From the NCBI GenBank assembly GCA_002269645.1, contig NIVC01001778.1, forward strand, positions 124,001-188,000: a stretch of DNA of 64,000 nt. Direction: 5' to 3'. Shown here in pieces: positions 23,621-61,059 of the stretch. Positions within the stretch are counted from its first letter, which is position 1; each line of letters starts with the position of its first letter. The notes under the pieces are model-generated. The model saw nothing but the letters and a program-made list of their open reading frames with translations, made no database searches and was not told the origin of the DNA. This DNA comes from Macrostomum lignano. Taxonomy: Eukaryota. The position numbers were made by a program, and so were the translations under genes.

Positions 23621-24134
23621 CGAATCAAAATAATTTCTGATTTTGCATGTCTCCACTCCAGACCTCGAGTCCAGTGCACCATGGCACCCCCACGGCTTCT
23701 TCTCTTCACACCGGATCTGCGAGTCTTCAAGCATCTTTCTTCCCGAATAGGTTTCCGGCCAACACAGTCTTTAATTTTGACCTCCCCTCAATGGCTACCA
23801 CCATTTTCAAGTGTGTCCGCGGTCCCAAAATGATTAAGGTGGGCCGGGATACTCGATTCTTTCTAGTCGTGAATAAAAACTGACAGAGCTGAGACTACTA
23901 TGTTTTATGGCCTACTCAATGCCGAGAGAGAGAAATGGGCAGGGCAAGATTCTACAACGCAACGTGCTTACAATTGGCTGCGTGAAGTGTTTTAAATTGC
24001 GTATTGAAATCTGGCAGTAGCATGGGATTTTTCTTCAAGCACTGAGGAGGAAGTGGCTTGAGTTAGACTTCTATTGTGGGATTGATTTTCCCTGCTTGCA
24101 CCTTGCCCCGGGATCAGAAGGGGAATCGTTGGAG

Positions 24135-24720
24135 ATTAAGAGTTGGAGACACTGAGAGTTGGGTGGATAGGAGACTGAGAGTTGGGTAGATAGAAGAGAC
24201 TGAGAGTTGGGTAAATAGGAGACTGAGATTTGGGTAGATAGGAGACTGAGAGTTGGGTAGATAGCAGACTGAGAGTTGGGTAGATAGGAGACTGAGAGTT
24301 GGGTAGATAGGAGACTGAGAGTTGGGTAGATAGGAGACTGAGAATAGGGTAGATAGGAGACTGAGAGTTGGGTAGATAGGAGACTGAGAGTTGGGTAGAT
24401 AGGAGACTGAGAGTTGGGTAGATAGGAGACTGGGAGTTGGGTAGATAGGAGACTGGGAGTTGGGTAGATAGGAGACTGGGAGTTGGGTAGATAGGAGACT
24501 GAGAGTTGGGTAGATAGGAGACTGAGAGTTGGGTAGATAGGAGACTGGGAGTTGGGTAGATAGGAGACTGAGAGTTGGGTAGATAGGAGACTGGGAGTTT
24601 GGTAGATAGCAGACTGAGAATTGGGTAGATAGGAGACTGGGAGTTGGGTAGATAGGAGACTGAGTTGGTAGATAGAATACTGAGGGTTGGGTAGACAGGA
24701 GACTGAGAATCGGGTAGATA
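24135..24720. repeat. 23-bp minisatellite abutting the retrotransposon; same family as 49550-50155 (inverted)
   Basis: Unit GGGTAGATAGGAGACTGAGAGTT. Confidence 0.95.
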
Positions 24721-24721
24721 T

Positions 24722-25422
24722 TGTTGTGTCTCGGCCTAATGGCCGCTGGACGGGTCAAGGTTCGGGCCCTCCCCGCCTGAGACACCCCTGTCCCAGCCCT
24801 CACCCCGGCTATTCCTACCCTGTCTCGCTCGGTTCGGCGAGAGTTCGCCTGACCGAACACCCTGGGATCGGCGAGAGTTCACCGTTCCCAGGTCCCTGCA
24901 GATCCCGGCCCCACGCGGCAACCCAGAAGAACGAAAGCTCGAGCTCACCTCCTCTTGATATATCGAGTTACTAACGAAGCGTTTATTGGCCCGAAGCAGT
25001 TATTGGCACGCGAAGGCAGAGGTACGCCGATGAACGCAAAAACAGTAAGAACGAAGCGGACACCAATAGAGAGCCAACGTGGAGCGCAGCCCGCTCAGGG
25101 CTAGCATTTAAATAATACACAAAAAAGGGGGAGGGGTGGGGCAGAATGGAGACGGCGAGCCAAACCCTGGGGCCCAGCCGGCTTATCAGCCAGCCAGCCA
25201 ATACGAGCAGCCCCAGGGTGAGGCGGGCAACGAGGGAGGGGGGGGGCACCCAGATTGGACAGAGATTGGGCCGGGGGCTGGGTGCAAAGGGCTAGGCCAG
25301 GGTTGAGACTTACGCCTCTCACAAACCCTGGCCCGGGCGCGAGACGGGGGACGGGGCGGGGTGGCATGAAAACTGAAAACAAAAGTACGAGTACATACAC
25401 ACTGGAAGGGCGCAGCCCAACA
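24722..25422 (-). repeat. 3' LTR (701 bp)
   Basis: By eye it differs from the 5' LTR by one substitution (GAGCTC vs GATCTC) and one G in a homopolymer; TATTTAAA at about 25107-25114 and AATAAA at 24982-24987 on the minus strand. Confidence 0.97.
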
Positions 25423-25434
25423 TCCTCCCCCTCC
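25423..25434 (-). promoter_or_regulatory. Polypurine tract (plus-strand primer)
   Basis: GGAGGGGGAGGA immediately 5' of the 3' LTR on the minus strand. Confidence 0.92.
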
Positions 25435-25662
25435 ACGAAAAAGAAGAGGAGAAAGGGGATGTCAAGCAAAAAGCAACGCATGAACAAGCAAGTCTGAAAA
25501 AAAGTTAATTCAAAAAACGACGGCCGAAAAATAACAGAAAAACTTTGACGCGACGCGTGGATATCGCCGGCATTACAAAAAACAAAAACGAAAAAATGAA
25601 AACGGGACACAAACTATTGCGTACGCAAAAATTGAAAACGGGCTTAAGAACGCAATTCTACT

Positions 25663-27267
25663 CTACAATCGGCCAAAAAATCTACTACAGTTGGTCGCAA
25701 ACAGTCGAGTCCAGTACCTGCGATCACATTCACTGTCCGCTAGGGCTTCCGGCACGAACTTGATGGCTGTCGGGTCCTTGGGGTCTCCACCAAACGGTGC
25801 GGCCGATGTCACTAGCAGGCGCTGCCGCGGGAGATGCTTAGCCCGTTGGACCGCTCGCGGGGATCCTCGGCACCGAGCGGACACCTCGAAGAAGACCCCG
25901 TGGCACTTGCTCACCAGCGCGGCCTCGACGGCCTCCGGCAAGTCCAGGTCCTCGGCCAGCATGACGCTCATCGCTTGAAACTCCGGCTGCCGGAGGAATC
26001 CTAGGGCGACCGCCCAGGCAGGTTCGCCGCCTTCAACTCGGAACAAAACCGGCAGGCCGAACTCCTTGGCAAGCAAGAACTGCTCCATCGCCGCCGTTAA
26101 CTGGTCCTGGCGCTGCGACCTCTCAGCGTCCCAATTGAGCTCGACTTCGCCGACCGCCACGACACGCGGCCAGCTACCCGCTAGAAATCGTCGTACATCG
26201 TCTCGCAGCGATGGCCACCACGGTGCAGCACTGGCCTTCAGGCCCAGGGCGAACACGATCCGTCGGTCTTGCAGCAGTGGTCGGACAACGGGACATTCTA
26301 GACGCAGGCAGTACAGCGAGTTTACAGCCGCTAGACATCGACGCACGCCACGAAGGTCCTCGGGCTGAATCGACCGGCCCAGCCTCGTTAGGTATGCCTT
26401 TGCATCGACGAGACGCTTAGCCGAGCTGACCTTGCGCTGATTCGGGTCGTCACGGGGGCAGACCTCCTGGACCGTGTCGGCCGGTCGTACTTGCTCGGGG
26501 TCGACACCCGTTAACTCTTCGGTCGCCAAGTCGCGCTGGGCCGTCAGCGGAGTCTGCGAAAGGTGCGGCCCGTCACTCCCCTCCTCCGGGCGCCGCGCGA
26601 GGCCAGGATCCACTAAGAGAGACAGACCCCGGAGCCTCCCCAACAAGGGACCCCCCAACTCACACAGCTCAAAACCCCGCACAGCCAACAACACGCACTC
26701 AAACGCCGCCTGCAGCACCGAAGGCGGGACCCTCCGACACCTCCCGGAGCCACCACCAGAACCTCTCTTCCGCCCATACTGATTGCACAGAAACGACACA
26801 GACACTGCTAAGAATCTAGACAACTGCTCAGGCACACTCACACCAGCCCCATCAAGAAACCTCGCCACCTCCTGAACCACCAGGCAAGCTCCTTCACTAT
26901 CCCCAGCCCTCAACCGCGCCAGCAGCGCACCCCTCAGCCGCCTACACTCAGCAAGCGCAGCCGGAGCCAATAACTCGGCTGGGATCTCCGCGTGAACTGG
27001 AGCTTCCCCTGCGGCGCTTCCCTTAAGACTAGCCAAAGCTAACCTGACCTGCTCGGGCAACTCAACGTCAGGGGGAGGATTGAAAAAGTAGGCGTACTTT
27101 AACACCCCTTGACACGCTGCCTCTCCAACCCGATCGTATACTTCCCGAAACACTGGGTCAGATAAAACGCACATCGCCATCACGTCTCGCTGAGACTCCG
27201 GAGACCCTACCTCGGCAGGACAGACGCGGGGCCGCTTTGAGTACAGACGATACACACGCTGCCTCAA
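25663..27267 (-). CDS. Retrotransposon ORF3 main frame: C-terminal part of a J-like domain, helical linker and degenerate TatD-family (amidohydrolase TIM-barrel) domain
   Basis: 534-codon open frame. TatD motifs in order: LVDAKAYL (DxHxH), VFALGLKA (GxHP), VVAVGEVELNW (VAIGEIGLDY), LAKEFGLPVLFR (LAxELxLPVxIH), GVFFEVSA, HLPRQRLLVTSAAPF (IPLDRLLLETDAPY), ATNCSRFF (NAxRLF). N-terminal AMCVLSDPVFREVYDRVGEAA resembles J-domain helix III-IV [21 protein letters not shown]. Confidence 0.8.
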   Translation of the reverse strand: MRQRVYRLYSKRPRVCPAEVGSPESQRDVMAMCVLSDPVFREVYDRVGEAACQGVLKYAYFFNPPPDVELPEQVRLALASLKGSAAGEAPVHAEIPAELLAPAALAECRRLRGALLARLRAGDSEGACLVVQEVARFLDGAGVSVPEQLSRFLAVSVSFLCNQYGRKRGSGGGSGRCRRVPPSVLQAAFECVLLAVRGFELCELGGPLLGRLRGLSLLVDPGLARRPEEGSDGPHLSQTPLTAQRDLATEELTGVDPEQVRPADTVQEVCPRDDPNQRKVSSAKRLVDAKAYLTRLGRSIQPEDLRGVRRCLAAVNSLYCLRLECPVVRPLLQDRRIVFALGLKASAAPWWPSLRDDVRRFLAGSWPRVVAVGEVELNWDAERSQRQDQLTAAMEQFLLAKEFGLPVLFRVEGGEPAWAVALGFLRQPEFQAMSVMLAEDLDLPEAVEAALVSKCHGVFFEVSARCRGSPRAVQRAKHLPRQRLLVTSAAPFGGDPKDPTAIKFVPEALADSECDRRYWTRLFATNCSRFFGRL

Positions 27268-27340
27268 TCTCCGCAGAGTTAGCAGTCCGACCCACGCCTA
27301 ACACGCCATACAAATCAGTCGGTGTCGTTGGCGACGACAT
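27257..27340 (-). CDS. Probable true N-terminus of ORF3 (J-domain helices I-II), one base out of frame with the main ORF
   Basis: ACCATG at 27340; MSSPTTPTDLYGVLGVGRTANSAEIEAA aligns to DnaJ DYYEILGVSKTAEEREIRKA; the main ORF3 frame has a TAG at 27298-27300, so the join needs a frame change at GCG-T-GTG-TAT (27259-27250). Confidence 0.65.
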
Positions 27341-27677
27341 GGTCCTCCTGCAATGATGACATTTAAACCCAATCACTACCTATGCCTTGCGGACTAGCAA
27401 CTGTGACCCTGACCTGACCCATCCTATGACATGTTTATTTTACAATACGATTGAGAACGCTTCTTGCCTAGCATACTTTGTAATTTTAATACATTTAATG
27501 TTTTTTACGTGCTTTCCATGCGTTCCATTTTATGATTTTTTTGTGCTTTGGGGTTGTATCATTTTTTTCATTTTAGGTTATTTTAGGCTTTCTACCATAG
27601 ACAACAGCGTGGAGGCATTAATACAAGTGCATATTAAAAATCAATTTATGACGACCGCCTTGTGAGCCCACTGCGAA

Positions 27678-30600
27678 TTAACGATACAATACCGGATTCC
27701 CGTAATACGCTGGGGGCACACCCCGACGCTCGCGCAGTCTGCGCGGAGACACGGCTGGCGCCGCTGGAGCCACCGGTGCGCATGGCGCAACTGGCGTTCC
27801 CGGCCCTACTATCCCATGCCGAGGCCCAACGGCAACTGGTGGCACCACATACGAGTAAAACTCCTCCTCCTCCTCAAGTTCCGGCTCTTTAGTCGCCGGC
27901 CCCGCGGGCTCCTGTCTGCACCCTGCCGGCTCAGGCGGATGCGCCGACCGGCGCTGCACTGCCGTATGCCTATTCATCAACCTGAACTGCTCAGGCCGCT
28001 CGGGTACTTTTCGCAAATTATTATAATGCACTATTTTGCTCTTTCCCCTATTGGCGTGCTTTACCCGGTAATTCAAATCGGATATCTTCTCTAACACCTT
28101 CGCCGGCCCCTTCCAATTGCAATGGAACTTGGCTGCCTCCCCTGCCTGCAGCGCAGGCGAGTATTCTAGGACGGCATCCCCAACTTCTATGGCCGGGCCT
28201 CGCACCCTTGAGTCGTACAGCACTTTCTGTTTCCTCTGGTACTGCTGCAGGTTGGTCCGCACCTGCGAATGAGCCTCAGCCAGACTATTACCTAATGACT
28301 GAACATACGCCGGAGCACTGGCAGGAATGGACTCAGGCAAGGTTCCAATGTCCACTGGAAGCCGCATCTCCCTGGCGTACAGCATGTAGTACGGGGTGTA
28401 CCCCGTGCCTCTGTGAACGCTGCTACGGTACGCCATGAGAGACGGGTGGATCAGATCCTCCCAGTCTCCTTCGCCCACCGACTCACTCATCCTGCACTTG
28501 ATCATTGACTTCAACGTCTTATTGAAACTCTCAGCCTGACCATCAGCCATCGGGTGATAGGAGGACGTTCTGCATTTCTTAACGGCAAGCAACCGACACA
28601 ACTGCTTCATCAAAGCCGACTCAAAATTGGTGCCCTTATCGGTGACTAGAAATTCAGGACAACCAAAGTGCGCAATCCAGTGATCAAAAATCGCTCGCGC
28701 CACCGTCGGGGCTCGCTGATTGGACAAGGGCACCGCCACCGGCCACTTAGTAAAAGAATCCTGGATTGTCAGCACGAATCGATTGCCACCTCTGGACTTG
28801 GGCAACGGCCCGACAATGTCACTCATGATCCTCTGGAAAGCTCCTTCCGAGCAGATTGGCTGCAAAGGCGCCCGGTTGCTGCGCCCAGGCTTCGCCTTCG
28901 CACAGTGGACACAGCTCCGGCAATACTCTTCCACGGAACGACTCAGCCCCGGCCACCAGTATCTCGCCTTCACTTTCTCTTGTGTCTTCCTAACCCCAAG
29001 GTGCCCTCCTGCAACCCCATCATGAAGCTCACTGAGCACTTTCGGCAGCAAAGCCGGCGGCAGCAAGATCTTTTTCTGGCACCCACTCCCGGGACTCTGA
29101 AAATACAACAGATCAGACTCTACTCTTATCAGCTGCCGTTGTGCCCACAGCACACGCTCCTCCCACGACATCACTCTAGGCGCACTGGGGTTCGAACCCG
29201 GGTCCAGGGCATAGGAGCGGACAGCTGCAAGCTTCTTCTCGGCCACTTGCGCCTGCTGGACTTCCTTCGAAGACAGCCCACTGCCAAACACCGCGTTCAC
29301 TACTGGCACATTCTCGCTAAACTGGCAGCTAGGGCAGCTCTCATGGCCAGCGTGTTTTCGGTACTTGCGAGACAGCGAATCAGCGTTGCCGTGCTCCTTG
29401 CCTGGCCTGTGAATGATCTCAAAGTCGAAGTTCTGGAGCGACTCAAGCCACCTTGCGCACTGACCCTCTACGTCCTTCAGACTGGCTAGCCACTGCAAAG
29501 CTTTGTGGTCTGAACGAACAGTGAACTTTCTACCTAACAAATAGTACCTATACTTTTTGACGAAGTGCACGACGGCAAGCAACTCTAACCTGGTGGTGCA
29601 ATAATTTTTCTCCGCCGCATGAATCATCCTAGACCCGTAAGCGATCACCTTCTCACGGCCATCTGCTTGACGCTGTGACAGGACGGCTCCCAGCCCGACG
29701 CGCGAACTGGCGTCCGTGTCGAGGATGAACTCCCCGGCACCAGGCGAAAAATCCGGGAATGCCATCACATTCGGTGAACACAAAGCGTCTTTCAGCCTGC
29801 AAAACGAACTCTCCTCTTCACTACCCCACTCAAACTTCACTCCGTCTGCGGTTAACCTATACAGCGGCGCTGCAATCTCCGAAAACTGCGGGATAAATGA
29901 CTGATAGTAGGCGCACGTACCCAGGAATGCCTGCACCTTCTTGGCGCTACATGGCCTCGGCCAATTCTGGATCTCCTCGCACTTGCTCGGGTCCGTTGCG
30001 ATCCCCTCCTGAGAGACGATGTGGCCCAGAAACTTCACCCGCTCTGCGAGGAACACACACTTGGCGGGCTTCAGCTTGACATTGGCATCCCTCAGGCACT
30101 GGAAAACATGCTTCAATCGCTCGAGATGCTGACCCACCGACTTGGCGAACACGACTATATCGTCAAAGTACACCAGGCACTCCTTCCAGTTAACCTCAGA
30201 CAGGGCCATAGACATTAGCCTGGCGAACGTAGCGGGAGCATTGCGCAAGCCAAAACTCATGCACTTCCAGGCGAACTGACCCCTGTTGGGTACCACGAAC
30301 GCCGTTTTCAACTGGTCCTTCGGCTCAATCGGGCACTGATGATAGCCGGAGGCCAGATCCATCGTCGAGAAAACACAGTTCCCTCCTAGCGCATCAAGCG
30401 TCTCGTCCATCCGCGGCGGTGGGTAAGGATCTGGCACTGTGACCTCGTTAAGGCGCCGATAGTCTAGACACAACCTCAAGCTACCGTCGGCCTTTTTAAC
30501 CGGCACGATCGGGCTCGCCCACGGAGAGTAGCAGGGATAGATGCGATCCTGCTGCAACAACTCATCAACCTGCTTATCAATTTCCTCCTTCCAGCGCGGT

Positions 30601-31676
30601 GGAATCCTACGCGCGGGCTGACTTACTGGCTTGGCGTTGCCGGTGTCAATCTCATGCGCCATCAAGTGTGACTGTCCCAACTCCGAGCTATCCCTGGCAA
30701 AGACATCACGATTCCGAGCCATCAGGCGCTCAAACTCGTGCTTCTCATCGCCCGTCAGGCCACATCCTCCCCACTCCTTGACATCGCTGAGGGGGTTCCA
30801 GTCGTCTCGGACACTCTCCACCGAGTTCACCTGCCACCCAGCTGGCTGCTGGGCCGCCACTGGGGAGAACCAACCAATTCGGCTTCCCTTCCTTAATGAC
30901 AGACTGCATCCTGACGTGTTCAACACCCTGACAGCCAAGCGACCGTCCCCGTCAGGCATCTGTACCGATCTGGCCACCATCTGCTCGTTACTCACTCTCC
31001 TCTCAGACTCCACAATGCCTAGGAACTGAACCCCAGAGGGAACCCTTCTCTGCAACCTGACGTGCACCACCTTCTCTTGACCTGCATTGAACTGCTCAGG
31101 CTGACTCAGCACCAGACGGCAAAGACGCGGCTTATCTGCTGATAAGCGAAACGGATACACACAGGATGCAGTCTGCAAGCAATTCCTAGCAAAGTCAATC
31201 GCCATCCCGTGTCTCACGAAAAAGTCAGTGCCCAGAATACATGCCACAGCCAGTTCCTCGACCACAGCGAACTCGTGCAAAAACTCGGTGTCCCCAACAG
31301 AAAACTTCATCGTCACCATTCCATGTACAGCAATCGGTTCCCCATTGGCAGCGAAAACGGAAAAATTCGGCAAATTCGGCGATAAGTCAATGTCGGCTTT
31401 TCTAGACTTCAGGAAACGGTTGCTTAACAACGACACGGTGGCCCCGCTGTCCAGCAGACATGCAATCGGGGGCCCAAACCTAAACTGTGCATCCACATAG
31501 CCCAGTCCCTGCCGACTCAGCACACTCTGGGACAAGGCCGCGGCCCCCGATGCACCCGGATTCACTGACGCTGGGGCCCGGACGGGTGCCCCGGCCGAGC
31601 CCCCAATCCGTTTCCCGAACCCGACTGGTCCCACCGACGATAGCAGCGGTTGCGCATGTGCCCTGACTGGCCACAC
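27678..31676 (-). CDS. pol: Gypsy pol polyprotein (protease, reverse transcriptase, RNase H, integrase), expressed by -1 frameshift from gag
   Basis: LLDSGATVSLL (protease), LCLDYRRLN and YFDDIVVF (RT), ILDTDAS/ELLAVV/SDHKAL (RNase H), HDGVAGGHLG...CVHC zinc finger, DIVGP/TDKG/ESFN (DDE integrase), WKGP (GPY/F); 1332 codons uninterrupted. Confidence 0.98.
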   Translation of the reverse strand: MWPVRAHAQPLLSSVGPVGFGKRIGGSAGAPVRAPASVNPGASGAAALSQSVLSRQGLGYVDAQFRFGPPIACLLDSGATVSLLSNRFLKSRKADIDLSPNLPNFSVFAANGEPIAVHGMVTMKFSVGDTEFLHEFAVVEELAVACILGTDFFVRHGMAIDFARNCLQTASCVYPFRLSADKPRLCRLVLSQPEQFNAGQEKVVHVRLQRRVPSGVQFLGIVESERRVSNEQMVARSVQMPDGDGRLAVRVLNTSGCSLSLRKGSRIGWFSPVAAQQPAGWQVNSVESVRDDWNPLSDVKEWGGCGLTGDEKHEFERLMARNRDVFARDSSELGQSHLMAHEIDTGNAKPVSQPARRIPPRWKEEIDKQVDELLQQDRIYPCYSPWASPIVPVKKADGSLRLCLDYRRLNEVTVPDPYPPPRMDETLDALGGNCVFSTMDLASGYHQCPIEPKDQLKTAFVVPNRGQFAWKCMSFGLRNAPATFARLMSMALSEVNWKECLVYFDDIVVFAKSVGQHLERLKHVFQCLRDANVKLKPAKCVFLAERVKFLGHIVSQEGIATDPSKCEEIQNWPRPCSAKKVQAFLGTCAYYQSFIPQFSEIAAPLYRLTADGVKFEWGSEEESSFCRLKDALCSPNVMAFPDFSPGAGEFILDTDASSRVGLGAVLSQRQADGREKVIAYGSRMIHAAEKNYCTTRLELLAVVHFVKKYRYYLLGRKFTVRSDHKALQWLASLKDVEGQCARWLESLQNFDFEIIHRPGKEHGNADSLSRKYRKHAGHESCPSCQFSENVPVVNAVFGSGLSSKEVQQAQVAEKKLAAVRSYALDPGSNPSAPRVMSWEERVLWAQRQLIRVESDLLYFQSPGSGCQKKILLPPALLPKVLSELHDGVAGGHLGVRKTQEKVKARYWWPGLSRSVEEYCRSCVHCAKAKPGRSNRAPLQPICSEGAFQRIMSDIVGPLPKSRGGNRFVLTIQDSFTKWPVAVPLSNQRAPTVARAIFDHWIAHFGCPEFLVTDKGTNFESALMKQLCRLLAVKKCRTSSYHPMADGQAESFNKTLKSMIKCRMSESVGEGDWEDLIHPSLMAYRSSVHRGTGYTPYYMLYAREMRLPVDIGTLPESIPASAPAYVQSLGNSLAEAHSQVRTNLQQYQRKQKVLYDSRVRGPAIEVGDAVLEYSPALQAGEAAKFHCNWKGPAKVLEKISDLNYRVKHANRGKSKIVHYNNLRKVPERPEQFRLMNRHTAVQRRSAHPPEPAGCRQEPAGPATKEPELEEEEEFYSYVVPPVAVGPRHGIVGPGTPVAPCAPVAPAAPAVSPRRLRERRGVPPAYYGNPVLYR
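31552..31616 (-). promoter_or_regulatory. Programmed -1 ribosomal frameshift signal: slippery G_GGA_AAC plus H-type pseudoknot
   Basis: Heptamer 31616-31610 in gag frame; 6-nt spacer; stem 1 GGGGCTCGG/CCGGGCCCC; stem 2 GCACCCG/CGGGTGC; pol is in the -1 frame. Confidence 0.85.
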
Positions 31677-32542
31677 TCCCGGCAGACCACTGCATTACGG
31701 CACCGAGCCGTAGTATGCCCTGTCTGCAGGCACCGACCACACTGCCTCTGCTGCTGACTCTGCTCAGGGGCTCGATGCTGCAAGCTCACTTTTGGCTGCT
31801 CAGACCTTGCTGTCGCCATCGGCGCAGTGGGCGCTGCAGCACTTGCTTTTAGCTGAGCCACTTCCGCTTTCAGAGTTGCTATCTCGGCGGCTGCCCTGGA
31901 CTCCTGGCTGTTGCCAGCCGCTGCGGCCTGACCCCCCACCATGTGCACAGCTCGCTTACCCTCGGGCTCCATCAGAGCCAACGATGCCCTCACTTGACGC
32001 ACCCGCCTAATAGCGTCCTGGAGCGTCTCTGGCGCTTGCAGCAGCACGCTCTCCAGCACCCGGGCTGGCACCCGAATCCCCTTCAAAAACCTGTCTTTCA
32101 CCAACTCTTCTCGCTGGGCCGCTGGCAGCATTGGGTACGATTTTCTCATAAGCTCCTTGAGCACGTCTGCATATTCTTCAATGGGCTCGCCATCTTTCTG
32201 ATTCCTACTCTGGAACTCGGTCTTGTAATCTTGAGCAGTCCTATTCTCATCAAACCTAGCTTCTAGCTGCTCAACAAACTCATCATACGGCAAATCATCG
32301 GCCAACTCAAGATTCGCAACAGCCTTAAAAGCAGTATTAAAGTCAAGCAGACTGAGCAGCGCCTGCTTGCGCTGATCCCCTAGAATATGAGCCGCCTCAC
32401 AATACCCTGTGAATTGTTGCATCCAAAGGGCAAAGTCCTGTGTGGGCACGTACTTATTTGGCCTCGGCACCCGCTGTGCCACATTAAGTTCGTTTTGCAG
32501 ACGCGCCGTCAGGGCGTCAATCAGATCGTCTAAATTGGCCAT
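31562..32542 (-). CDS. gag: Gypsy gag (326 aa from GCCATGG at 32542)
   Basis: Retrotransposon-gag-like region (WMQQF...YDEFVEQLEARF...RNQKDGEPIEEY...LVKDRFLKG) and two zinc knuckles CGRCLQTGHTTARC and CRECGQSGHMRNRC. Confidence 0.95.
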   Translation of the reverse strand: MANLDDLIDALTARLQNELNVAQRVPRPNKYVPTQDFALWMQQFTGYCEAAHILGDQRKQALLSLLDFNTAFKAVANLELADDLPYDEFVEQLEARFDENRTAQDYKTEFQSRNQKDGEPIEEYADVLKELMRKSYPMLPAAQREELVKDRFLKGIRVPARVLESVLLQAPETLQDAIRRVRQVRASLALMEPEGKRAVHMVGGQAAAAGNSQESRAAAEIATLKAEVAQLKASAAAPTAPMATARSEQPKVSLQHRAPEQSQQQRQCGRCLQTGHTTARCRNAVVCRECGQSGHMRNRCYRRWDQSGSGNGLGARPGHPSGPQRQ

Positions 32543-32646
32543 GGCTACAAAAGCACAGAGACAACCGAAGCAAACAACACACAAATAAACTAGGCAACAC
32601 ACACAACCCTAAACACACGGCAGGACAGCAGGGGAGAGGACCGCTG

Positions 32647-32664
32647 ATCCTGGTCACGGCACCA
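32647..32664 (-). promoter_or_regulatory. Primer-binding site complementary to the 3' end of tRNA-His
   Basis: TGGTGCCGTGACCAGGAT two nt after the 5' LTR; its complement ATCCTGGTCACGGCA-CCA is the 3' end of invertebrate tRNA-His(GUG) as recalled. Confidence 0.85.
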
Positions 32665-32666
32665 CT

Positions 32667-33368
32667 TGTTGTGTCTCGGCCTAATGGCCGCTGGACGGGT
32701 CAAGGTTCGGGCCCTCCCCGCCTGAGACACCCCTGTCCCAGCCCTCACCCCGGCTATTCCTACCCTGTCTCGCTCGGTTCGGCGAGAGTTCGCCTGACCG
32801 AACACCCTGGGATCGGCGAGAGTTCACCGTTCCCAGGTCCCTGCAGATCCCGGCCCCACGCGGCAACCCAGAAGAACGAAAGCTCGATCTCACCTCCTCT
32901 TGATATATCGAGTTACTAACGAAGCGTTTATTGGCCCGAAGCAGTTATTGGCACGCGAAGGCAGAGGTACGCCGATGAACGCAAAAACAGTAAGAACGAA
33001 GCGGACACCAATAGAGAGCCAACGTGGAGCGCAGCCCGCTCAGGGCTAGCATTTAAATAATACACAAAAAAGGGGGAGGGGTGGGGCAGAATGGAGACGG
33101 CGAGCCAAACCCTGGGGCCCAGCCGGCTTATCAGCCAGCCAGCCAATACGAGCAGCCCCAGGGTGAGGCGGGCAACGAGGGAGGGGGGGGGGCACCCAGA
33201 TTGGACAGAGATTGGGCCGGGGGCTGGGTGCAAAGGGCTAGGCCAGGGTTGAGACTTACGCCTCTCACAAACCCTGGCCCGGGCGCGAGACGGGGGACGG
33301 GGCGGGGTGGCATGAAAACTGAAAACAAAAGTACGAGTACATACACACTGGAAGGGCGCAGCCCAACA
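32667..33368 (-). repeat. 5' LTR (702 bp)
   Basis: Near-identical to 24722-25422; followed on the minus strand by the PBS. Confidence 0.97.
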
Positions 33369-33994
33369 ATATAGTAGTGATACAGTTGAGTAGATTTCAG
33401 GCACTTCTCAGTCTATAAAGAGTGTCGGATATGCAATGAAACGCAAGCTAAACTTAAACGCACTCAATTAACCGTGGCTGGCCATAAATAAAGCTTCTAA
33501 AACCTTGAGCATCGCAGCGGGTATTCGCTAAAGCGCACTGCGACAGAGGCACTCAAATTGACTTTGCATAAAATAAATTGATTTGGCGAACAATTTTCAC
33601 AAAACTTCAACTAGTTTAGGCCTCGCCTTCTTTAATTGTTTTGTTATCTATTATACTCATAATATAACTACTAAAGTCAGAATTGACCAGACAGTCCCCA
33701 TCTCCGCTTGAGGTCCAATTAAAGAAAACGATAGCTAATTATAAAAATGTTGGCAATGAATGCTTATCATTTAATCCTATTCATTTAGGGATTTTAAGTC
33801 ATGCCCCATTATTGCAGGTGCCTCCTCGGTGGGCGGGAATCAGAACGAAGAGTTAAAAGCTCTTATCCAATTATGGAATTAGATGTTCTTAAATTCTAAA
33901 GTATTCGACACCCACACGCACACAGATGCAACTTTAATAATCGCTTTGTAAATTGAAAATACTCGAAAGAAACTAGAGGGAGCATCCAGGATTT

Positions 33995-41619: not shown

Positions 41620-42340
41620 TGAAGGATACCAAAAGGGGAAAAGAATCCCAAATAGGGGAAAAGAATACCAAATAGGGAAAAAGAATACCAAATAGGGAAA
41701 AAGAATACCAAATAGGGAAAAAGAATACCAAATAGGGAAAAAGAATCCCAAATAGGGAAAAAGAATACCAAATAGGGAAAAAGAATACCAAATAGGGAAA
41801 AAGAATACCAAATAGGGAAAAAGAATACCAAATAGGGAAAAAGAATACCAAATAGGGAAAAAGAATACCAAATAGGGAAAAAGAATACCAAATAGGGAAA
41901 AAGAATACCAAATAGGGAAAAAGAATACCAAATAGGGAAAAAGAATACCAAATAGGGAAAAAGAATACCAAATAGGGAAAAAGAATACCAAATAGGGAAA
42001 AAGAATACCAAATAGGGAAAAAGAATCCCAAATAGGGAAAAAGAATCCCAAATAGGGAAAAAGAATCCCAAATAGGGAAAAAGAATCCCAAATAGAGCAA
42101 AAGAATCCAATAAAGGGGAAAATAATCCCGAATAGGGGAAAAGAACCCCGAATATGGGAAAAGAATCCCAAAGTTGGAAGAATCCCAAAGCTAGAATAGT
42201 CCCAAAAGGGGAAAATAATCCCAGATTGGGGAAAAGAATCCCGAATAGGGAAAAGAATCCCAAAAAGGGAAAATAATCTCGAATAGGGGAAAAGAATTCC
42301 ACATAGGGGAAAAGAATCCCAAAGCTAGAAGAATCCCAAT
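41620..42340. repeat. 20-bp minisatellite at the end of foxQ2 intron 2
   Basis: Unit AAAAAGAATACCAAATAGGG. Confidence 0.95.
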
Positions 42341-42382
42341 TCAGCAAAACTCTTCACGACAAACACCCCCGCCCAAATCAAG

Positions 42383-42867
42383 GCCGCTCCTCCAACGGCA
42401 AGGGTCACTACTGGTCGATTCACCCGGCCAATCTCGACGACTTTAAGCGAGGCGACTTCCGCCGGCGTCGGGCCCAGCGCAAGGTGCGCAAAGCGATGGG
42501 GCTGGCCTGCCCCGACGAGGAGGACACGCCGACCCCGTCGCCAACCGGCCCCGACAAATGCTTCGACTGGCAGGCCGCAGCCGCCATGGCAGCCGCTGCC
42601 GCAGCGGCCGGCGCAGATTTCGGCCTGCCAATGACGTCATCGTTTCCGCCGGCGCCGTTTCTGCAACATCAGCAGCAGCAGCAGCATCAGCCGCCGTTCC
42701 AGACTCCCCAGCAACAGTTTCTGGGCAACTTTGACGCCACTCCGGTGGTACGACGGAAGCGAGGCTTCGACATGGCTAGCCTACTGGCTCCGGAGGAGGC
42801 GTCTACGCCGCCAACGTCGACAATGTCGAGAGCGACTCGACCGCTTCTGTTGAACACGAGCTCTTGA
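42383..42867 (+). CDS. foxQ2: FoxQ2-type forkhead transcription factor, exon 3
   Basis: Acceptor TCAAG at 42378-42382 restores G-RSSNGKGHYWSIHPANLDDFKRGDFRRRRAQRKVRKAMG (fd102C/FoxQ2-like); C-terminal eh1-like RGFDMASLLAP; stop 42865-42867; spliced CDS 1317 nt = 438 aa. Confidence 0.9.
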
Positions 42868-49549: not shown

Positions 49550-50155
49550 CTGCCTACCCAACTCTAGGTCTCCTGTCTACCCAACTCTCGGTCTTCTGTC
49601 TACCAAACTCTCAGTCTCCTATCTACCCAACTCTCAGTCTCCTATCTACCCAACTCTCAGTCTCCTATCTACCCAACTCTCAGTCTCCTGTCTACCACCC
49701 AACTCTCAGTCTCCTATCTACCCAACTCTCAGTCTCCTATCTACCCAACTCTCAGTCTCCTATCTACCCAACTCTCAGTCTCCTATCTACCAACTCTCAG
49801 TCTCCTATCTACCCAACTCTCAGTCTGCTATCTACCCGACTCTCAGTCTCCTATCTACCCAACCCTCGGTCTTCTGTCTACCAAACTCTCAGTCTCCTAT
49901 CTACCCAACTCTCAGTCTCCTATCTACCCAACTCTCAGTCTCCTATCTACCCAACTCTCAGTCTCCTATCTACCCAACTCTCAGTCTCCTGTCTACCACC
50001 CAACTCTCAGTCTCCTATCTACCCAACTCTCAGTCTCCTATCTACCCAACTCTCAGTCTCCTATCTACCCAACTCTCAGTCTGCTATCTACCCAACTCTC
50101 AGTCTCCTATCTACCCAACTCTCAGTCTCCTATCTATCCAACTCTCAGTCTCCCA
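49550..50155. repeat. 23-bp minisatellite, reverse complement of the 24135-24720 array
   Basis: Unit AACTCTCAGTCTCCTATCTACCC. Confidence 0.95.
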
Positions 50156-50739
50156 TCAGCCTTGAGCATTCGGCAGTTTACTCACTCGGAGTCTCCGACA
50201 ACGCGAATCCGAAATTCGACTCCGCCCCAGGCCAGCCGCCTTCGCAATCAACCGAGAGATCGGATCAGCCCTGATCAAAGCCCAACCCCTCCTCCCCTAA
50301 GCGACACGATTTGGGAAATATTTCCCCAATCGTCTTCTTCAAGACCTGCCGCGTGTCACGCGCTACTCGGGGGGTTTCTACTCAACAGAAAAAATCAGGA
50401 CCCCAGGCTAATTATCTCACAGCCTTCTCCCTCATCTTTGCCGGGGTTGAAAAAATCTGACAATGAAGTGAGGAAGCGAGCATGGGGAATTTTCGACGTT
50501 TTCAGCGCGCTGAGACTCGGACAGACAGACAGACTGGTGGAGGACAGATTTGGAGATCGAGCGTGTTGAGAAAGATTAGCGCAGGCCCTAATTAGCTTTG
50601 TCGCCTATTAAAGCTGGGCGAGTTTTTATTTGGTTCGAAGCTCAAAGTTATGACCGGCTTAAACTATGGCTGACACTCTCGCCTGCTCTCTGCTCCCTCA
50701 CCTGATTCCTGTGCGCCGCAGTCTCTGCTTTCCCCGTGC

Positions 50740-59891: not shown

Positions 59892-59913
59892 GCACAAACC
59901 AAAAGACTCTCAC

Positions 59914-60488
59914 CACACCGATGTGCTATTCCCGTGGATCTGGTCAACAGTCTTGCTGAACAGGGCAATCAGCAAGTTCAACAGCAGCACGTTGGTGACC
60001 AGGATGAACAGGAAGTTCAGCGCGGTCGGCACCAGAACCCGACCGATTTCGTGTGGACAGCCGGCCTCCTCGCAGGCGAGTCCTTTGAGCTCTTCGACAA
60101 AGAACTCGCCTACGGTGATGTAGAAGGCCTTCTCGATGAGGTTGACCCACACGCGCTGCATCTCCCAGCGGCTGCTGTGAAGGTCCTCACAAGTCTCGTT
60201 ACCCTTAGCCGCGGGCGCAGACCTGCGCTGATAGTAGCCGTTGGGGTACAGCAGCGACTGCAGCGAGACGCCGAAGGCGGCCATGAAGATGCCGAGAACG
60301 AGCAGGAATGGCAGCAAATCGGTGACGAGCATCTCGCAGATCATGCGAATTTTCGGCCCGATGGCCTTGAAGATGACGGCGTAGAACAGGAGGCGGCAGT
60401 ACAGCAGGAACAGGCAGACGCAGTACAGAACTCTGATCCAGTAGTACCGGCTGTCCACGAAATCTGGGACGCAGGACATACGCTCCAC
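59914..60488 (-). CDS. TRPM: TRPM channel exon: S4, S4-S5 linker, S5, pore, S6
   Basis: RLLFYAVIFKAIGPKIRMICEMLVTDLLPFLLVLGIFMAAFGVSLQSLLYP...FYITVGEF...NVLLLNLLIALFSKT; acceptor ACTCCCAG, donor TG|GTGAGA. Confidence 0.92.
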
Positions 60489-60553
60489 CTGGGAGTCGTA
60501 TGGGATTGGAAGGAAAGATGTAGAATTGGGGAACTTTTTCTGGAAAGATTGAA

Positions 60554-61059
60554 GTGTCAGAGACTGTTCTAGGGTGTCAGAGACTGTTCTAGGGTGTCAG
60601 AGACTGTTCTAGGGTGTCAGAGACTGTTCTAGGGTGTCAGAGACTGTTCTAGGGTGTCAGAGACTGTTCTAGGGTGTCAGAGACTGTTCTAGGGTGTCAG
60701 AGACTGTTCTAGGGTGTCAGAGACTGTTCTAGGGTGTCAGAGACTGTTCTAGGGTGTCAGAGACTGTTCTAGGGTGTCAGAGACTGTTCTAGGGTGTCAG
60801 AGACTGTTCTAGGGTGTCAGAGACTGTTCTAGGGTGTCAGAGACTGTTCTAGGGTGTCAGAGACTGTTCTAGGGTGTCAGAGACTGTTCTAGGGTGTCAG
60901 AGACTGTTCTAGGGTGTCAGAGACTGTTCTAGGGTGTCAGAGACTGTTCTAGGGTGTCAGAGACTGTTCTAGGGTGTCAGAGACTGTTCTAGGGTGTCAG
61001 AGACTGTTCTAGGGTGTCAGAGACTGTTCTAGGGTGTCAGAGACTGTTCTAGGGTGTCA
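60554..61059. repeat. Perfect 20-bp intronic minisatellite, about 25 copies
   Basis: Unit AGACTGTTCTAGGGTGTCAG with no visible variants. Confidence 0.98.

Follow-up and report, generated by a model that had tools for sequence, protein, structure and literature searches.

A J-domain-bearing accessory gene in the env slot of a Gypsy retrotransposon clade of Macrostomum lignano

The element and its third open reading frame

The window (the whole 64,000-nucleotide stretch of Macrostomum lignano DNA analysed here) contains a complete, young Gypsy element on the minus strand at positions 24722-33368 (Table 1). The TG...CA LTRs, target-site duplication (TSD), primer-binding site (PBS), polypurine tract (PPT) and the order of gag followed by protease, RT, RNase H and integrase identify it as a Ty3/Gypsy LTR retrotransposon, and its 5' and 3' LTRs are identical at 701 of 703 positions. 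We take the PBS to be tRNA-His-like. The TSD was 4 bp long in 18 of the 19 elements of a wider set, a length that presumably hints towards the CsRN1 or Gmr1/Osvaldo cluster. No canonical heat-shock element was found in the LTRs scanned, and a heat-shock link of the elements was rejected on this ground.

Table 1 Features of the Gypsy element in the window.
Feature	Position	Strand	Description
5' LTR	32667..33368	-	702 bp, TG...CA; TATA-like box at LTR position 309
3' LTR	24722..25422	-	identical to 5' LTR at 701 of 703 positions
Candidate splice donor	32888..32893	-	predicted; 3' half of 5' LTR
Second candidate splice donor	starts 32748	-	predicted; 5' LTR
Primer-binding site (PBS)	32647..32664	-	3' of 5' LTR
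gag	31562..32542	-	Retrotrans_gag-like, zinc knuckles; open frame
pol	27678..31694	-	protease, RT, RNase H, integrase; 1338 codons, open
Candidate splice acceptor	27348..27360	-	predicted from cross-family conservation; 7 nt 5' of ORF3 ATG
ORF3	25663..27340	-	558 aa in open copies; one frameshift in this copy, near 27250-27260
J-like domain without HPD	27133..27322	-	ORF3 aa 7-69
Five-helix domain with basic loop	26605..26967	-	ORF3 aa ~125-245; conserved, matches no known family
TatD-like barrel, degenerate metal ligands	25666..26421	-	ORF3 aa 307-558
Polypurine tract (PPT)	25423..25434	-	
Target-site duplication, left copy	24718..24721	.	4 bp, ATAT
Target-site duplication, right copy	33369..33372	.	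4 bp, ATAT

Three further features of the window were recorded. A 23-nt tandem array (24071-24720) adjoins the left end of the element and recurs, inverted, 25 kb away at 49790-50157. A plus-strand frame at 42307-42864 has no Pfam match at E 0.01, and to us resembles the end of a forkhead domain. A TRP-like ion-transport exon on the minus strand (59913-60596) matched Pfam Ion_trans at E 1.6e-5, below the cut-off.

The third open reading frame (ORF3) lies 340 nt past the stop of pol and about 230 nt ahead of the PPT, and the original prediction was correct in its coordinates, its orientation and its slot between pol and the PPT. In the window, the ATG-bearing frame and a 544-codon frame are offset by the single frameshift, and the frame of about 558 aa that had been predicted by joining them exists naturally at other loci. 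A genome search for ORF3 returned 59 matches, with an open 571-codon frame (558 aa from the ATG) at nine loci (L002-L010). When 20 loci were compared with L002, nine were gap-free (L002 counted), ten had indels and one was a partial match with an indel; these loci represent 18 distinct places and are not independent insertions, because some matches are one insertion on duplicated contigs. A word-based homologue search with the window ORF gave no matches, and proteins 96-97% identical to ORF3 are named Macrostomum lignano in UniRef.

As the original prediction held, ORF3 is not env: it has neither a membrane anchor nor homology to fusion proteins. The best 19-residue Kyte-Doolittle mean is 1.49, in agreement with the predicted lack of a transmembrane anchor, but the predicted lack of a furin site did not hold, as RX[KR]R strings occur at aa 200 and 499. 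These strings mean little because ORF3 has no membrane anchor.

Domains of ORF3 and their distribution in the clade

In the family of the window (family A), ORF3 is composed of a J-like domain, a five-helix domain and a TatD-like barrel. The J and TatD parts of the predicted architecture were both recovered, and the conserved helical domain (aa ~125-245) had been missed. The wider clade was surveyed by searches with the sister ORF3s, after which 80 genome stretches were examined. At least eight related M. lignano families (A-H) carry ORF3 after integrase, and wherever it is present it lies between integrase and the PPT, the same slot in all eight, as the original prediction envisaged. The Pol proteins of these families are 43-61% identical to that of the window. 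ORF3 consists of J, helical and TatD domains in families A, B and C, and of J-domain, acidic linker and helical domain (283-328 aa, no TatD) in families D, E, F, G and H. Of 93 matches, 14 were family-D loci with the full 322-codon frame, 20 of the 21 full-length matches of family H have no stop, and every examined ORF3 copy of families B and C is broken.

A tree built on 30 RT/RNase H rows (L097 left out as too short, root placed at the midpoint only) put all ORF3 families in one clade (support 99/98), which splits into A+A'+B+C (99/98) and D-H (97/97). Three outgroup elements had no ORF3 match. ORF3 is dispensable in places: A', with an RT 82% identical to that of the window, has no J, helical or TatD match, C2 has only the C-terminal half of TatD, and two D2 loci are without ORF3. 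The core of ORF3 is the J-domain, linker and five-helix domain; the chromodomain of family G and the disabled TatD of families A-C are later additions. ORF3 is an accessory gene that one Gypsy clade captured and has long kept.

Several loci show unusual arrangements. C2 (L029-L031, L068, L100) has a pol and an LTR of the B type, and 117 nt past pol lies the C-terminal half of a TatD of the C type; the family is recent (LTRs 99.3-99.9% identical where both are available) and arose by recombination and deletion. The closest sister of the window's family (L081:3131-4400, L083:3417-4630) has 1.2 kb past pol with a GC-rich stretch of ~700 nt and no J, helical or TatD match, which may be a replaced or decayed ORF3. 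At L060:3661-6960, a deletion joins RT/RNase H in frame to a family-E ORF3 (1099 codons), and the fusion is annotated as a host hypothetical protein (P0008). A 289-codon frame at G000:C255:211154-211861, 28% identical to family-E ORF3 across 247 aa, is perhaps a ninth family. The PBS differs within the clade (L041, L049, L052, L053, L055), with one start in families A, B, C and E and another in G, and starts TGGCGCCC in D, F and H; we take the A, B, C and E type to be His-like and the TGGCGCCC start to be Lys-like. A 355-codon frame at L036:2030-3097 (also L034 and L035, one locus on three contigs) has a Walker A/B pair of the SF3-helicase type and weak AAA matches, and is possibly an integrated small-DNA-virus replication gene. 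A T-antigen-like fusion of J-domain and SF3 helicase at this locus was rejected, since the helicase-like frame interrupts a decayed ORF3. Two AT-rich frames of ~290 codons downstream of a family-G pol (L088:2000-3100) look to us like Polinton/adintovirus-type genes.

Selection was evaluated by dN/dS (Nei-Gojobori). Within-group family pairs gave 0.08-0.38 across all domains, namely 0.10 (J), 0.08 (helical) and 0.14 (TatD) for B/C, 0.10 and 0.19 for H/H2, 0.15 and 0.30 for F/F2, 0.16 and 0.20 for D/D2, and 0.38 for the chromodomain plus helical domain of G/G2, where J was saturated. A/B and A/C gave 0.22-0.47, near saturation. The J, helical and TatD domains are all under purifying selection. 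For two HPD-less copies of family A, the value was 0.33 (0.17-0.57) for ORF3 versus 0.13 for pol.

The predicted N-terminal J-like domain scored below the Pfam DnaJ cut-off of 27.8 bits in the 558-aa family-A protein (aa 9-69, E=0.0025, 18.3 bits) and above it in the sister-family ORF3s (48.9 and 61.6 bits; 48-65 bits across the HPD-bearing families). A structure model covering ORF3 aa 5-246, built on an alignment of 29 rows (20 from elements and 9 from host J sequences), had a mean pLDDT of 79, and its N-terminus aligned with the ERdj5 J domain (Z 8.7, rmsd 2.6, 72 aligned). The N-terminus is accordingly modelled as a four-helix J fold, in a model that is not fully independent as host J rows were in the alignment. 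HPD is present in 7/7 representatives of families B-H and absent only from A; the predicted degeneracy of this signature is therefore right for the window's family and wrong elsewhere, with seven of the eight families keeping HPD. By sequence comparison, HPD loss is read as a derived state of family A. The family-A J branch measures 2.14 substitutions per site versus 0.1-0.8 for the other families, consistent with a relaxation or change of function once HPD was lost. Between L002 and L010, 5 replacement and 3 silent codon changes fall in the J-domain and 3 replacement and 9 silent changes in the helical domain, small numbers in each case. Monophyly of the element J-domains received 43/78 in the J tree, which does not name the donor. 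Dozens of the DnaJ matches in the M. lignano genome are transposon copies and not host chaperones, and caution is needed in reading such matches. Host J-proteins at L076-L078 occur as local tandem copies with long serine/proline repeat tails.

The helical domain was modelled as five helices with a flexible loop (pLDDT mostly 83-97), and comparison with known structures returned generic bundles only (best Z 8.3). It is homologous in all eight families, with leave-family-out scores of 15-87 bits (weakest in E and A, 15-16 bits) versus shuffled maxima of 5-11. The basic loop carries 5-9 K/R in 14/14 rows. The helical-domain profile found one M. lignano protein only, as weak evidence, only designed helical proteins in the PDB and no match in the Atlas. 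No part of the domain was sufficiently conserved to serve in scans of contigs.

Within the fast-evolving linker lie motifs such as FVVI-SDDE, IVVI-SDDE and CIII-SDDE. Such a SIM-like motif (hydrophobic core plus S-D-D/E) was counted in 8/15 frames and 6/8 families with a pattern set after the motifs had been seen. Host J ORFs (2398 aa) had no occurrence of this pattern and pol (4996 aa) had one; the motif is short and degenerate, and chance values overstate independence among these related families. It is absent from family A, where the acidic linker was lost together with HPD, and from the chromodomain-bearing family G, and the cores YILI, YVWI and YIWI fit the hXhh consensus loosely. Known SIMs in the accessible text of PMC8616421 include VVVI of PML and IIVLSDSD of Daxx. 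The linker matches the description of a SIM (hXhh/hhXh core with an acidic or phospho-Ser flank) and is a candidate SIM in six of the eight families. The chromodomain was above cut-off in G (47.7 bits) and G2 (29.1 bits).

At the C-terminus, the 558-aa family-A protein matched Pfam TatD below the cut-off of 27 (aa 359-535, E=5.5e-5, 23.1 bits), and sister-family ORF3s, from B and C, were above it (35.3, 31.9 and 31.5 bits). All TatD motifs follow in the predicted order when compared with bacterial TatD, with homology along the whole barrel. The first motif is DAKAY in the window's family and DAHAF in the sisters, and the ETD motif reads TSA or ASS. E91, E201 and D203 are given as catalytic in E. 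coli TatD in the portion of PMC10711561 available to us. The E91 equivalent is kept, and in 3/3 TatD-bearing families the E201 equivalent is T or A and the D203 equivalent A or S. Two of the three catalytic acids are gone in families A, B and C, in line with the degenerate metal ligands of the original prediction, and because the E201 and D203 equivalents are replaced, the barrel is a putative pseudo-nuclease in all three families carrying it. A single-sequence fold including the TatD part had a pLDDT of 39, and the better model covered only aa 5-246.

The ORF3 TatD shares with the TatD nucleases (E. coli TatD/YcfH/YjjV, human TATDN1-3) the barrel motifs in order and the E91 equivalent, and differs from them in that most histidines are replaced and no close donor was found among two host paralogues or bacterial matches. 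The best matches of its profile were bacterial YcfH/YjjV-type proteins, host TATDN1-like and TATDN3-like exons scored only 5-12 bits, and a third host TatD was not found in the M. lignano genome search. A resemblance to TATDN2 is, on our assumption, a conceivable pointer to its origin. The element TatDs form one clade (100/99) on a long stem of 2.0 in the TatD tree, and the donor is not named. The sole relative found outside M. lignano, P0003 (166 aa, 50% identical, an A-like TatD half), groups with family A (100/98). TatD-profile scans gave 598 metagenome and 83 viral contig pattern matches, none of them confirmed. By the RT/RNase H tree, TatD was probably added once within the clade.

Candidate signals for subgenomic splicing

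A GTRAG donor lies in the 3' half of the LTR in 8/8 ORF3 families (chance product 0.0016, a generous value as the families are related), and also in the LTR of the ORF3-less A'. YAG occurs 0-1 nt 5' of the ORF3 ATG in 4/6 families (P 2e-4, generous for the same reason), and the YAG-to-ATG distance is 7 nt in A and 16 nt in D. Families B and C have no ATG where the J-domain begins; A is the last base of their donor exon and TG opens their acceptor exon, so the predicted junction would itself create a start codon, in the same place as that of F, G and H. The conserved signals point to an env-like, spliced subgenomic ORF3 mRNA. The contigs of four runs (kinds guessed; contigs drop rare forms) contain no joint at the predicted subgenomic junction, and none at the internal intron of gene models P0001/P0002 either, a result that weighs neither for nor against splicing. 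According to the consulted part of PMC8629364, M. lignano spliced-leader (SL) trans-splicing involves 30% of genes and the SL ends in AUG. Cis-splicing is preferred for B and C because the AUG of the SL would be out of frame there.

Proposed function and relation to known systems

The ancestral and commonest ORF3 product, judged from its motifs, should be a J-protein that activates Hsp70, and not a decoy. At a probability of roughly 45%, we favour an adaptor working in the nucleus, which would recruit host Hsc70 to repressors that carry SUMO or are bound to chromatin, in the manner of polyomavirus T antigen, because each added module would recognise chromatin, SUMO or nucleic acid, and a J-protein hands Hsp70 to the client bound by its other domains. 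Translation of ORF3 would use a subgenomic RNA spliced from the 5' LTR donor to the acceptor immediately ahead of ORF3, and the protein would act in the nucleus, docking on SUMO-modified proteins via the SIM-like linker, on methylated chromatin via the chromodomain and on nucleic acid via the basic loop and dead TatD. HPD would then fire host Hsc70 at the docking site, and repressive complexes bound to the chromatin or nascent RNA of the element itself would be loosened. The J-domain of polyomavirus T antigen acts on Rb-E2F in this way, SUMO has a role in piRNA-guided transcriptional silencing, and HSV-1 ICP0 is a SIM-bearing viral anti-silencing precedent for such an adaptor. Nuclear action rests on motifs, since the helical domain matches generic bundles only, and Hsc70 activation cannot apply to the window's family, where HPD is absent; this family lost HPD and the SIM-like linker together and probably kept only a docking or shielding half (helical domain plus pseudo-TatD). 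The anti-silencing role raised in the original prediction is plausible, and the SIM-like linker, chromodomain and basic loop would favour the chromatin level over Argonaute/PIWI loading. We hold the full scenario to be less likely than not, namely a T-antigen-like counter-defence in which an Hsc70 co-chaperone, aimed at SUMO and chromatin and produced from a spliced RNA like that of env, dismantles provirus silencing, with swappable aiming modules (SIM, chromodomain, dead TatD) and one lineage turned into a pure shield.

Intact HPD in seven of the eight families would also suit a chaperone of cytoplasmic replication, by which ORF3 recruits Hsc70 to Gag/Pol for particle assembly, RT maturation or uncoating and dead TatD shields RNA or cDNA ends. 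Auxilin, which acts on clathrin, and Hsp40/Hsp70 in hepadnaviral RT activation are models for this role; large DNA viruses commonly encode J-proteins, and the env-slot position comes with its own candidate splice signals. Yet Gag and Pol are ordinary, the close sisters without ORF3 are recent by LTR identity (A' 98.9-99.6%, C2 99.3-99.9%), and the chromodomain and SIM-like linker have no clear particle use, so that we regard this role as rather unlikely. The same splice signals, together with the K/R-rich loop, are compatible with an RNA factor that attaches by its basic loop to unspliced genomic RNA and aids the export of this RNA, while Hsc70 remodels the RNP. C. elegans Cer1 reportedly encodes such a Rev-like factor, CERV. 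ORF3 has no link to CERV or Rev in sequence or fold, however, the chromodomain is left unexplained and ORF3-less sisters retain the donor, and we consider an export factor improbable.

The double decoy of the original prediction, an inactive J plus an inactive TatD titrating host chaperones and nucleases, for example during PIWI loading, fits the sequence of the window's family, whose ORF3 is still selected (dN/dS 0.33) and whose TatD half has a relative elsewhere in P0003 (50% identity). It is not a general model, because seven of the eight families keep HPD and five of the eight lack TatD, and even in family A the very long J branch and the replacement-rich J-domain fit relaxed constraint; we hold it to be slightly less probable than the export factor. 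That ORF3 consists of host-gene fragments carried along as passengers, of no use to the element, would account for its repeated loss or truncation and for the broken copies of B and C. This is very improbable and largely refuted by the dN/dS of all within-group domain pairs, which is well under 1 at dS 0.8-2.2, by the many open-frame loci of D, G and H, and by the fixed slot in eight families despite Pol only 43-61% identical to the window's. Our order of preference is the nuclear adaptor, then the particle or RT chaperone, the Rev-like export factor and the double decoy.

If the nuclear adaptor reading is right, the ORF3 clade would be one whose elements steer host Hsp70 machinery, as its domains suggest. 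The HPD J-domain was kept through deep divergence of a retrotransposon clade, and the retroelement repertoire gains a helical domain without known family and a pseudo-TatD. Natural variants in one genome (HPD kept or lost, SIM-like motif, chromodomain, TatD, no ORF3) make function testable by family comparison, and transgenesis exists for M. lignano.

A retrotransposon-borne J-domain or TatD was not found among the matches listed by full-text literature searches, and DnaJ mentions in PMC9004415 and PMC3852528 are unrelated. In the M. lignano LTR-retrotransposon catalogue (PMC12801592), the main text as available has 0 matches for DnaJ, TatD or ORF, and five supplements do not mention ORF3 cargo, their DnaJ rows being host transcript clusters. 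These families probably belong to the CsRN1 or Gmr1/Osvaldo clusters of the catalogue, and an earlier annotation of the cargo elsewhere, for instance in Repbase or GyDB, is possible. Captured-domain ORF3s are already known, and the J/TatD cargo appears new relative to the available text of PMC5408684. That text describes non-env ORF3s with a DEDDy exonuclease or GDSL esterase in LTR retrotransposons of bdelloid rotifers and does not mention a J-domain or TatD. As here, a captured enzyme-like domain occupies the env slot with family-specific gain and loss; the bdelloid ORF3s keep their catalytic residues and show no clear departure from neutrality, whereas here a dead nuclease is under strong selection (PMC5408684, in part).

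Protein-based anti-silencing is established for plant VANDAL transposons, whose VANC21 and VANC6 are among the few cases listed in the sections of PMC6719617 consulted. Like ORF3, VANC is an accessory protein kept by a transposon lineage and proposed to counter chromatin silencing; it differs in belonging to plant DNA transposons, in having no J-domain and in that its function has been shown, the corresponding role of ORF3 being conjectural (PMC6719617, in part). With errantivirus env, ORF3 shares the position after integrase and, judging by its candidate splice signals, may share spliced subgenomic expression, but not the membrane anchor or fusion-protein homology. The large and small T antigens of polyomaviruses are, like ORF3, parasite-encoded proteins in which an N-terminal HPD J-domain is joined to client-binding modules; as ORF3 has no LxCxE, origin-binding or helicase domain, the analogy is one of mechanism.
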